26,308 bases of DNA, taken from the IMG/VR virus record IMGVR_UViG_2713896785_000023; one strand, written 5' to 3'. The notes under the pieces are model-generated. The model made no database searches. It was not told where the DNA came from and saw nothing but the letters and a program-made list of their open reading frames with translations. Source of the stretch: a virus. Lineage: Duplodnaviria > Heunggongvirae > Uroviricota > Caudoviricetes. Below, piece after piece: positions 17,110-18,266 of the stretch; the stretch's first letter is position 1; every line of letters begins with the position of its first letter. A program made the position numbers and the translations under genes.

Positions 17110-17253
17110 ACTAACCGTTTATATGAAAAGCAACCGTGAATTAAGCAGAGTAAAACTGTTTTTAATCCTTGCCACAGTACTGACACTAACAGAAATCATT
17201 ATTCTCTTTATTGCGCTGTCAGTCAGTTAAAAATATCGGGATGCAACAAACCA

Positions 17254-17442
17254 ATGAGATTGTATTTCAGAATAGTAATTTTACTGGCAATTATCGCATG
17301 CATTTACGGACTACTCGTCCCGTTCCTTATATCCATGAAGGATACGGTAGCAGTCATTTCCGGCTTTGCACTGGCGTTTCTGACCCCGCCCTGCATTTAT
17401 GCCATTTACAAGGGTCTTTCTTTCACTAAGGATAAAAGATGA
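17254..17442 (+). CDS. Small inner-membrane protein (62 aa, two predicted TM helices)
   Basis: Hydrophobic stretches IVILLAIIACIYGLLVPFLI and VISGFALAFLTPPCIYAI; stop overlaps the SPFH gene start (ATGA). Confidence 0.5.
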   Translation: MRLYFRIVILLAIIACIYGLLVPFLISMKDTVAVISGFALAFLTPPCIYAIYKGLSFTKDKR

Positions 17443-18266
17443 AAAAAGTTATTTTTGCTTTAGCCATTGTTCTTCCGACCATTGGCCTTGTCGGTTGCGA
17501 TCGCGTTGAACCAGGTAATGTTGGCATCAAGGTAAATAAACTGGGCGACGACAAAGGCGTCGGTGAGGTGGTCGGTGTTGGTCGCTACTGGACTGGCTGG
17601 AATACTGAAGTTTATATCTTCCCCACCTTCAAACAAATGAAGACCTACGATGAACCGTTCAGTTTCCAGATGAGTGACGGTACAACCATCGGCTATCACA
17701 TCGGTGTGGCCTACAAAGTTGATCCATCCAAAGTTACCACGGTGTTTCAGACCTACCGCAAAGGCGTGGATGACATTACCGACACAGACCTGCGCCAGAA
17801 GATCGCAGATGCACTCAACCGACTGGCCAGCAAAATGACCACCGACAAATTTATCGACGGCGGTAAGTCTGAACTTCTGGATGCAGCTCTCAAAGACATT
17901 CAGGAAGAAATGACACCCATTGGTATTCAGGTAATGAGCCTCTCATATGTGGGTAAGCCGGAATACCCGCCAACCGTTATCGACAGCATTAATGCCAAAG
18001 TCACGGCGAACCAGAAAACCCTGCAACGCGAGCAGGAAGTAAAACAGCGCGAAGCGGAAGCCAACATGCTGCGCGCGGAAGCTGCCGGACAGGCTGATGC
18101 GATTCGTACAAAAGCCCAGGCAGAAGCCGATGCCATTCGTTTACGCGGCGAAGCTCTGCGCCAGAACCCAGGCGTCATGGAACTGGAAGCCATCAACAAG
18201 TGGAACGGTACACTGCCGCAATACATGACCAGTGGTGCCAATACACCATTTATCCAGATTAAATAA
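17439..18266 (+). CDS. SPFH/band-7 (prohibitin-like) domain lipoprotein
   Basis: Signal peptide with lipobox LVGC; band-7-like core and a C-terminal Ala/Glu-rich coiled coil (EAEANMLRAEAAGQADAIRTKAQAEADAIRLRGEAL). Confidence 0.7.
   Translation: MKKVIFALAIVLPTIGLVGCDRVEPGNVGIKVNKLGDDKGVGEVVGVGRYWTGWNTEVYIFPTFKQMKTYDEPFSFQMSDGTTIGYHIGVAYKVDPSKVTTVFQTYRKGVDDITDTDLRQKIADALNRLASKMTTDKFIDGGKSELLDAALKDIQEEMTPIGIQVMSLSYVGKPEYPPTVIDSINAKVTANQKTLQREQEVKQREAEANMLRAEAAGQADAIRTKAQAEADAIRLRGEALRQNPGVMELEAINKWNGTLPQYMTSGANTPFIQIK

Follow-up and report, generated by a model that had tools for sequence, protein, structure and literature searches.

A translationally coupled pair of a two-transmembrane protein and an SPFH-domain lipoprotein in a Shiga-toxin 1 prophage: a member of the phage N4 gp19/gp20 family with a possible role in lytic growth

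What might a phage do with an SPFH-domain lipoprotein and a small membrane protein encoded immediately ahead of it? The question is raised by a gene pair in the Caudoviricetes record IMGVR_UViG_2713896785_000023, a stretch of 26,308 nucleotides that was analysed as a whole and is called the window here, in which the gene for a 62-residue protein with two transmembrane segments overlaps the gene for a 275-residue SPFH/Band-7 lipoprotein. A preliminary description of this DNA had placed the pair in the region where lambdoid phages keep exclusion and lysogenic-conversion genes and had suggested superinfection exclusion or abortive infection as its function. By its sequence features the pair is a plain member of the module represented by gp19 and gp20 of phage N4 (PHROG 1130 and PHROG 200) and of the SPFH superfamily, to which it adds nothing unusual. 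The best overall explanation that we can offer, on which we find ourselves evenly divided, is that this translationally coupled module forms a split SPFH cage with a role in lytic growth.

The hairpin protein and the SPFH lipoprotein as one module

The larger protein matches Pfam Band_7 (PF01145) over residues 22-208 with an E value of 6e-31 and 108.3 bits, where the cutoff is 23.6. Its match to PHROG 200 ('lipoprotein') has an E value of 1.8e-114. Read from the sequence, its signal peptide ends in L-V-G-C20, which fits the lipobox pattern [LVI][ASTVI][GAS]C, and an Asp occupies position +2 relative to the lipobox Cys, as it does in 48 of 73 distinct family members. In E. coli, Asp at this position is what classically keeps lipoproteins in the inner membrane (the Lol-avoidance rule), and because it follows the LVGC lipobox here, the protein is predicted to be retained in the inner membrane. 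The AlphaFold2 model, built on a 33-sequence alignment (predicted local distance difference test score, pLDDT, 73.7), contains an alpha/beta domain at residues 20-175 followed by one helix of 65 residues, and leaves the C-terminus unmodelled; this helix, which follows the SPFH domain, is the C-terminal coiled coil of the preliminary description. Used as a Foldseek query, the model gave full-length matches with E values between 5e-14 and 1e-6 to HflK/C (4.6e-14), prohibitin, erlin, stomatin, flotillin, QmcA and the major vault protein, and on this structural evidence the protein would fall among the cage-forming SPFH proteins (HflK/C, prohibitin, erlin and stomatin). HflC and HflK are also its nearest characterised relatives by sequence, but the scores lie far under the cutoffs of those families.

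The smaller protein has hydrophobic segments at residues 7-23 (TM1) and 32-48 (TM2), which bears out the two helices that had been assigned to it. The first segment ends in the motif P23-x-L-I-S27 (PFLIS, encoded at 17320-17334), followed by a loop of about five residues (S-M-K-D-T), and basic residues are present at both ends of the protein. In an alignment of 19 diverse partners, which are 16-68% identical to the window protein and 16 of which belong to PHROG 1130, P23, S27 and G37 are nearly invariant. By the positive-inside rule both ends of the hairpin would be cytoplasmic, and nothing but the conserved motif would then extend to the periplasmic face. Pfam returned neither an NfeD domain, even at E values up to 0.1, nor a significant holin-family match (single best E value 0.038) for the window partner or any of the 19 diverse partners, and the identification of the partner as an NfeD protein or a holin was therefore rejected.

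How tightly the two genes belong together was assessed in a survey of 208 loci, drawn from the relatives of three proteins (the window protein, N4 gp20 and ORF17 of Pseudomonas phage Ab22) together with individual phage records; 202 of them could be evaluated, and these represent three lineages, within each of which the loci are not independent. A small open reading frame (ORF) abuts the SPFH start in 200 of the 202; in most cases the spacing lies between a 3-nt gap and an overlap of 8 nt, and in 190 loci this ORF encodes two predicted transmembrane segments. When the upstream proteins are reduced to 80 distinct ones, two such segments are found in 71, and the end of TM1 bears the motif P-x-[LMF]-[LIVM]-[SN] in 64. 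In the window the junction is an ATGA overlap, in which the ATG of the SPFH gene shares bases with the TGA stop of its partner. Natural fusions add to this picture. Among the best 150 SPFH-family representatives in a library of 1.8 billion proteins, about 20 are extended at their N-termini by 55-100 residues, and 19 of these 20 (~13% of the representatives) are in-frame fusions in which the hairpin with its motif is followed by a linker, a third hydrophobic segment ending in the lipobox Cys, and the SPFH domain. One of them, P0002 from a P1-like E. coli element, arose where one A was lost from an A7 run at the gene junction (L004:3940-3970); its AlphaFold2 model, uninformative on contacts, places three helices ahead of the SPFH domain and has the motif at the tip of the hairpin. 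The synteny and the natural fusions thus indicate that the pair forms one unit, as the preliminary description had supposed when it called the two proteins translationally coupled and took the small one for the membrane partner that SPFH proteins usually have. We argue from this, with the fusions as the strongest evidence, that the two products are likely to act together, and the layout of the fusions suggests a topology with the two termini of the hairpin in the cytoplasm and an exported SPFH part. The fusions P0162-P0306 and P0002 retain the internal lipobox after the third hydrophobic segment, and signal peptidase II may process them to the two products that the separate genes encode. Because P0002 owes its fusion to a lost A, programmed frameshifting at the junction was considered as well, but rejected: the window has its A6 run only after the stop codon and lacks a canonical slippery heptamer.

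The borders of homology show how the module travels. In three other lambdoid contexts, similarity to the window sets in at about 17250-17270, which is the start codon of the hairpin gene, and in one lambdoid group it ends just past the SPFH stop codon. With P88 and a P1-like phage (loci L003 and L004) it spans 17480-18230 only, that is, the mature SPFH part, which is 96-97% identical between them (about 91% in DNA), compared with 42% for the signal peptide and 25-31% for the partner. This discordance across the lipobox implies that the two halves have had different histories. The hairpin with the signal peptide on one side and the mature SPFH part on the other seem, from these comparisons, to recombine independently at the lipobox and to be interchangeable.

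Carriage of the module is broad. By tblastn, homologues occur in 591 phage records. The temperate carriers include phiP27 and many Stx2 phages (98% identity), P1-like phages (92%), the P2-like P88 (97% in the mature part) and SSU5-type phage-plasmids (80%). Among virulent phages, N4 encodes gp20 (61%) with the 68-residue membrane protein gp19 upstream in an 8-nt overlap, N4-like Klebsiella and Erwinia phages have a homologue too, and the PVP-SE1 group encodes gp117 (49%) with the two-transmembrane protein gp115 upstream. Distant virulent carriers are the Pseudomonas Bruynoghevirus, Burkholderia phages, phiCbK-like Caulobacter phages and, with MbpV/MbpS, Kayvirus (25%); crAss-like phages, Lak megaphages and haloarchaeal viruses are further carriers. 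At least 228 clusters formed at 50% identity match at E values up to 1e-30. Of 5426 complete E. coli genomes, 535 contain DNA of the module, distributed over 420 sites in chromosomes and 198 on plasmids. Among the outcomes that the preliminary description had named as speaking against it is that homologues are always core host genes unrelated to phages; with 591 phage records and carriage by 535 of the 5426 genomes, this is not the case, and by their distribution the homologues are accessory phage genes of chromosomal prophages and phage-plasmids and not core genes of the host.

Genomic setting and expression of the pair

Positions 17050-18300 are 100% identical to the chromosome of E. coli 2013C-3264 (NZ_CP027544.1), and the window is, in the annotated record, a lambdoid Stx1a prophage whose nearest named phage is phiP27 (95% nucleotide identity), where the counterpart of the SPFH gene is L05. 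The minus strand carries the lysis genes, stxA1a/stxB1a, a frameshifted Q gene and the replication genes; the plus strand runs from an S24-type repressor gene through a string of small genes to xis-like genes and the integrase gene (19248-20447). The pair lies in this plus-strand arm between repressor and int, downstream of the repressor gene and on the same strand. RefSeq already annotates both genes, as WP_001242069.1 (62 residues, hypothetical protein) and WP_000755594.1 (275 residues, SPFH domain-containing). The features discussed here are collected in Table 1.

Table 1. Coordinates, in the window, of the gene pair, its parts and the adjoining elements.
Feature	Position	Strand	Remarks
SPFH/Band-7 lipoprotein gene, 275 residues	17439..18266	+	Pfam Band_7, PHROG 200, lipobox
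Signal peptide, residues 1-19	17439-17495	+	MKKVIFALAIVLPTIGLVG ahead of C20-D21-R
Lipobox Cys20	17496-17498	+	L-V-G-C, Asp21 next
SPFH domain, residues 22-208	17502-18062	+	Pfam Band_7 match
Single long helix, residues 178-242	17970-18164	+	AlphaFold2, 65 residues
C-terminal K-W-N-G motif, residues 254-257	18198-18209	+	conserved; family-wide form K-W-N-G-x-L-P
Partner gene, 62-residue helical-hairpin inner-membrane protein (predicted)	17254..17442	+	PHROG 1130 'membrane protein', E 7.9e-24; WP_001242069.1
GC-rich hairpin	18274..18292	+	GCCCGGC-AAACC-GCCGGGU, no U tract; 8 nt past SPFH stop
35-codon hydrophobic ORF	17123..17230	+	MKSNRELSRVKLFLILATVLTLTEIIILFIALSVS; probable non-coding spacer specific to phiP27-type context
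Weak terminator-like element	17084..17109	+	7-bp AU-rich stem 17084-17090 / 17094-17100, then U7 (17103-17109)

Two consensus scans found no promoter-like site on the plus strand between 17077 and 17254, a result that is compatible with a non-canonical promoter, the promoter and terminator scans both being consensus-based. Since homology begins at the start codon of the partner gene, the module carries no conserved promoter of its own. In P88 the pair is situated inside the early operon, between cox and a replication gene; in Enterobacter and Klebsiella prophages it is packed into the gene string from repressor to xis/int, with stops and starts overlapping; and in N4 it lies downstream of the RNA polymerase II (RNAP II) genes. 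These arrangements point to the module being made during lytic development. Embedding in early operons, the lack of a promoter of its own and presence in virulent phages together make us favour a role in lytic growth over lysogenic conversion or abortive infection. The preliminary description had placed the module in a region of exclusion and lysogenic-conversion genes, but it does not look like autonomous cargo in such a slot: no promoter was found for it, its homology starts at the start codon, and it is packed into early operons. Lysogenic conversion or altruistic abortive infection fares no better, with the module widespread in the obligately virulent N4, PVP-SE1 group, Kayvirus and phiCbK-like phages. 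An autonomous prophage 'moron' was rejected for want of its own promoter, with homology from the start codon, a marginal hairpin upstream and a hairpin without U tract downstream.

The DNA just ahead of the pair had been described as a terminator followed by an unlisted 35-codon hydrophobic ORF. The hairpin of the supposed terminator sits 3' of the stop codon of the upstream PHROG 1515 gene, outside the conserved module. It is marginal: its fold (dG -4.9 kcal/mol, z -1.06) was equalled in stability by 27 of 200 shuffles, and the terminator scan did not report 17084-17100. The 46-nt spacer that contains it varies at 15 sites between close relatives, and substitutions that fall in the stem do not compensate one another. 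An intrinsic terminator at this place was rejected, the fold being no better than chance in shuffles. The 35-codon ORF does exist, one nucleotide upstream of the coordinates first given for it (17123-17230, not 17124-17231), but its coding status found no support. Among 35 distinct close variants in IMG/VR, 26 substitutions divide into 8 synonymous, 17 non-synonymous and 1 start loss, where random placement of the same base changes predicts 8.3 synonymous and 16.1 non-synonymous and leaves the frame undisrupted in 18% of trials (P = 0.18). The 62-codon ORF, put to the same substitution test, gave a synonymous excess (13 against 8.4 expected, P = 0.035) and is under purifying selection. No Shine-Dalgarno sequence is visible upstream of the 35-codon ORF, and Pfam, PADLOC, PHROG and NCBIfam profile scans gave no family match for it. 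It is confined to the phiP27-type context and missing from the groups L030, L058 and L073, from P88, the P1-like phage and N4, and from the Enterobacter and Klebsiella prophages (L092-L097). Because of the random-like substitutions, the missing Shine-Dalgarno sequence and the position outside the conserved module, the ORF is probably a non-coding spacer that does not belong to the module. That it is a true third component, a small hydrophobic peptide acting with the module, would fit its being open in 34 of the 35 variants with conservative amino-acid changes; we hold this to be highly improbable, considering the neutral-like ratio of substitutions, the start lost in one variant, the P of 0.18 for staying open by chance, the absence from every other module context and the fact that T-rich DNA is expected to give a hydrophobic translation anyway.

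At the other end of the pair, the 3' hairpin (dG -14 kcal/mol, z -2.55; 2 of 200 shuffles as stable) coincides with the 3' edge of the conserved module, and homology to the L030 group stops at about 18270-18290. The hairpin may be an RNA-stabilising or weakly terminating element. Farther upstream, a perfect 15-nt inverted repeat (14770-14784 / 14796-14810) overlaps a promoter-like TTGCCA-17-TATTAT (14784-14812) just upstream of the gene for a DicA-like protein with two helix-turn-helix domains (14844-15542), and we regard the repeat and the promoter-like site at 14770-14812 as a candidate operator/promoter of the plus-strand arm of the module. The strongest terminator-like element of the region is at 13536-13565 (+), beside the 3' end of a cro-like gene, with an 11-bp stem of which 7 pairs are GC and a T-rich tail. 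On the minus strand the antiterminator Q gene (about 6879-7225) is frameshifted according to RefSeq, which could make late-gene expression, read-through expression of stx1 and the production of phage less efficient.

The neighbours of the pair in other phages were of limited help. The gene that immediately precedes gp19/gp20 in N4, gp18 (L085:2907-3221), bears the annotation 'superinfection exclusion, similar to P22 gp17', and in the Vi01-like phage PhiSH19 the SPFH protein gene adjoins an annotated superinfection-exclusion gene (PMC3220722); these adjacencies are anecdotal and may or may not be meaningful. In Staphylococcus phage A5W (L091:1-4349), mbpV/mbpS have lysK (endolysin) directly on one side and tgl (transglycosylase) on the other, and Kayvirus is the only sampled lineage in which the module stands beside lysis genes.

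A split SPFH cage and its alternatives

We propose the following model. The 62-residue protein would insert into the inner membrane as a hairpin with both ends in the cytoplasm and the P-x-L-I-S loop at the periplasmic face, while the 275-residue protein would be exported, lipid-modified at Cys20 and held in the inner membrane by Asp at +2. All structurally solved full-length SPFH proteins assemble as a dome or cage, and here the periplasmic SPFH domain and the 65-residue helix would build such a structure on the periplasmic side of the inner membrane. The hairpin protein would be its membrane-embedded subunit, and the pair a 'split' SPFH protein consisting of an anchor and a lipidated body. 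We consider this architecture, an inner-membrane hairpin plus a lipidated periplasmic SPFH cage, to be likely. It also seems reasonably probable that the pair is made after infection or induction, and not as an autonomous lysogenic-conversion gene; expression would be part of that of the operon extending from the repressor region as far as xis/int, and in virulent phages likewise after infection. Much more tentative is our suggestion for the function, in which the cage would fence off or shield part of the inner membrane of the infected cell and thereby protect a productive infection: superinfecting DNA would be kept out, lysis from without resisted, or an early failure of the membrane prevented. 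Superinfection exclusion in the lytic cycle is possible. A somewhat more doubtful version has the split SPFH cage capture a defined host inner-membrane machine, such as FtsH, a DNA-entry channel or a membrane-acting defence effector.

Several points weigh against this model. Oligomerisation, lipidation, membrane location and contact with the partner are all predictions, and the AlphaFold2 models are of moderate confidence only (pLDDT 74-76), with the C-terminus outside the model. A cage would cover a small patch of membrane, and generic shielding against DNA entry would need a specific client, for which we can name none. The position of the pair on the strand of the repressor gene and downstream of it makes some expression in the lysogen possible. 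Neighbouring genes vary between phage lineages, which makes guilt by association uninformative. Finally, the full-text literature searched, mainly outside subscription journals, yielded annotation-level remarks only and no functional study of any module member; the role of these phage genes has been called unclear (PMC13239085; PMC8540360), and the CRISPRi-ART paper covers N4 for rII only.

The alternatives differ mainly in when the pair would act and on what. Were it expressed from the prophage as a superinfection-exclusion or abortive-infection function by lysogenic conversion, guarding the lysogen against other phages, one would understand membrane products encoded between repressor and int on the repressor's strand, a module that is accessory and mobile (as its distribution over the E. 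coli genomes shows), the exclusion-annotated neighbour genes of N4 and PhiSH19 (PMC3220722) and the classification of PHROG 1130 under 'moron, auxiliary metabolic gene and host takeover'. Protection of a lysogen is meaningless, however, in the obligately virulent phages where the module is common, and altruistic abortive infection is not expected of a gene that virulent phages keep; the lack of an own promoter, homology from the start codon, the early-operon position and a PADLOC scan without match all point the same way, and we regard this account as unlikely. A second possibility starts from the resemblance to HflK/C: the periplasmic cage might enclose the host FtsH or compete for it and so alter the turnover of CII-, CIII- or Xis-like or membrane proteins, which would bias the choice between lysis and lysogeny or excision, or protect phage membrane proteins. 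FtsH degrades lambda CII, CIII and Xis, and the operon position with xis and int parallels that of lambda cIII. The best sequence matches, weak as they are, are HflC and HflK (NCBIfam E values 5e-6 and 3.5e-5; HflK in the PDB, 2e-4), HflK/C-FtsH complexes are among the top Foldseek matches, and the topology, with an inner-membrane anchor and a periplasmic SPFH domain, would be that of HflK/C. FtsH modulation has been raised before as an idea for phage SPFH genes (PMC8540360). Yet the HflC and HflK scores of 25 and 23 bits fall far below cutoffs of 134 and 159, prohibitin, erlin and stomatin match about equally well, the transmembrane anchor of the HflK/C type is missing, and occurrence in virulent phages, Gram-positive phages and archaeal viruses is a misfit for a role in the lysogeny decision, so that we think FtsH mimicry improbable too.

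Two further proposals look to the end of the infection or to host defences. The hairpin could resemble a holin or antiholin, with the cage sequestering it or the phage holin, or stabilising the energised membrane, to give later lysis and a larger burst. The partner does have the size and two-transmembrane topology of class II holins, the PVP-SE1 pair is found among several small membrane-protein genes, and N4, a carrier, is known for greatly delayed lysis. The location of the Kayvirus pair between lysK and tgl, with MbpV regarded as holin-like by the authors (PMC7150955), would also suit a lysis-timing or envelope-integrity device. Set against this are the lack of a holin family match (1 of 19 partners, at the non-significant E value of 0.038), the distance of about 17 kb between the module and the holin and lysozyme genes of the prophage, and a location in early or middle regions of N4, P88 and lambdoid phages, not in lysis cassettes; such a device is, in our estimation, quite unlikely. 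The pair as a holin of the class II or pinholin-like type was itself rejected, there being no significant family match and the holin/lysozyme genes of the prophage standing at the other end of the window. Counter-defence in the manner of rII, with the cage neutralising membrane-acting abortive-infection effectors (Rex-like or pore-forming), would agree with retention of the module by many virulent phages and with the membrane as the site of action, and the contrast between a partner that is 25-31% identical and a mature SPFH part that is 96-97% identical is compatible with arms-race shuffling. The case is purely circumstantial, though: no similarity to a known anti-defence protein was found, ordinary mosaic recombination explains the discordant histories equally well, and we would give this proposal very little chance. 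The split SPFH cage made during lytic growth remains our preferred explanation, at the strength given above.

The phage version is small and self-contained, one lipoprotein and one hairpin of 62 residues; it is highly conserved and occurs both in model phages that are easy to work with (N4, P1-like, P2-like) and in Shiga-toxin phages. If its client were identified, the carriage of the module by so many unrelated phages would be explained, and a minimal system would be at hand in which to study how SPFH cages assemble at the periplasmic side of the inner membrane. The client might also reveal a new way in which phages control the envelope of the infected cell, be it exclusion, lysis timing or control of proteolysis. 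If the split SPFH cage does capture a host machine, it would represent a general, unrecognised mechanism of host takeover or exclusion common to N4, Stx lambdoid phages, P1- and P2-like phages, Kayvirus and haloviruses. For the Stx prophage itself, the module is on present evidence no virulence or conversion gene.

Relation to known systems

The closest relatives are N4 gp19/gp20 and the other PHROG 1130/200 pairs, among them phiP27 L05 and P88 gp11/gp12, which like the window combine a hairpin of about 65 residues with P-x-[LM]-[IV]-S and an overlapping lipoprotein of about 275 residues, the latter with SPFH domain, long helix and C-terminal KWNG-LP in the N4 gp20 type. Both characteristics of that type were found in the window, PHROG 200 with lipobox and KWNG for the one protein and the PHROG 1130 two-transmembrane hairpin with motif and ATGA overlap for the other. 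Identity in the mature SPFH part amounts to 66% with N4 gp20 and 97% with P88 gp12, whereas that of the partner is only 25-30%; and unlike the N4 pair, which lies in the middle region, the window module is placed between repressor and int of a lambdoid Stx1 prophage. The Kayvirus pair MbpV-MbpS (Staphylococcus phages K and A5W) is a more remote case: a small membrane-protein gene again stands directly upstream of an SPFH gene with KWNG (25% identical), but the host is Gram-positive, MbpV has one transmembrane segment and a long charged tail, and the pair is flanked by endolysin and transglycosylase genes. Sec-dependent export has been speculated for it and MbpV noted as holin-like (PMC7150955).

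Phage proteins of known exclusion function are related by analogy. T4 Imm and Sp, P22 SieA and HK97 gp15 are, like the module products, small phage-encoded proteins of the inner membrane or facing the periplasm, and this analogy lies behind the function that we favour. The T4 superinfection-exclusion proteins are made early in lytic infection. None of these proteins has an SPFH domain, in contrast to the window module, and Pfam and PHROG scans found no sequence or family relation to Imm, Sp, SieA or the like. A known anti-phage defence system was rejected too: PADLOC-DB v2 gave no match to a defence model, at E values up to 0.1, for any of five local proteins (the 35-, 62- and 275-residue products and both flanking proteins).

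The characterised SPFH systems of bacteria are the last comparison. HflK/HflC with FtsH share with the window protein the SPFH fold with a long helix and, as predicted for the latter, the inner-membrane anchor and the periplasmic SPFH domain, give the best sequence and structure matches and lead one to expect a cage; they differ in that the window anchor would be a lipid plus a separate two-transmembrane hairpin instead of an N-terminal transmembrane helix, and in that there is one SPFH gene and no K/C pair. In the equivalog test the window protein scored 25.5 bits against a cutoff of 134.4 for TIGR01932 (HflC) and 23.4 against 159.4 for TIGR01933 (HflK), and scores, anchor type and the single gene rule the module out as HflK/C. 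The SPFH-NfeD operons, of which E. coli has QmcA-YbbJ and YqiK-YqiJ, likewise set an SPFH gene beside the gene of a small membrane partner with which its product works, and QmcA is a structural match to the window protein (8z5g, E 3e-8). The SPFH part of QmcA is cytoplasmic, whereas that of the window protein is predicted to belong to a periplasm-facing lipoprotein, and the window partner is encoded upstream, not downstream, and is without the NfeD (OB-fold) domain, by which an SPFH-NfeD pair was excluded. What is new in the module relative to the characterised SPFH systems is the combination of a predicted lipid anchor with a separate two-transmembrane hairpin.

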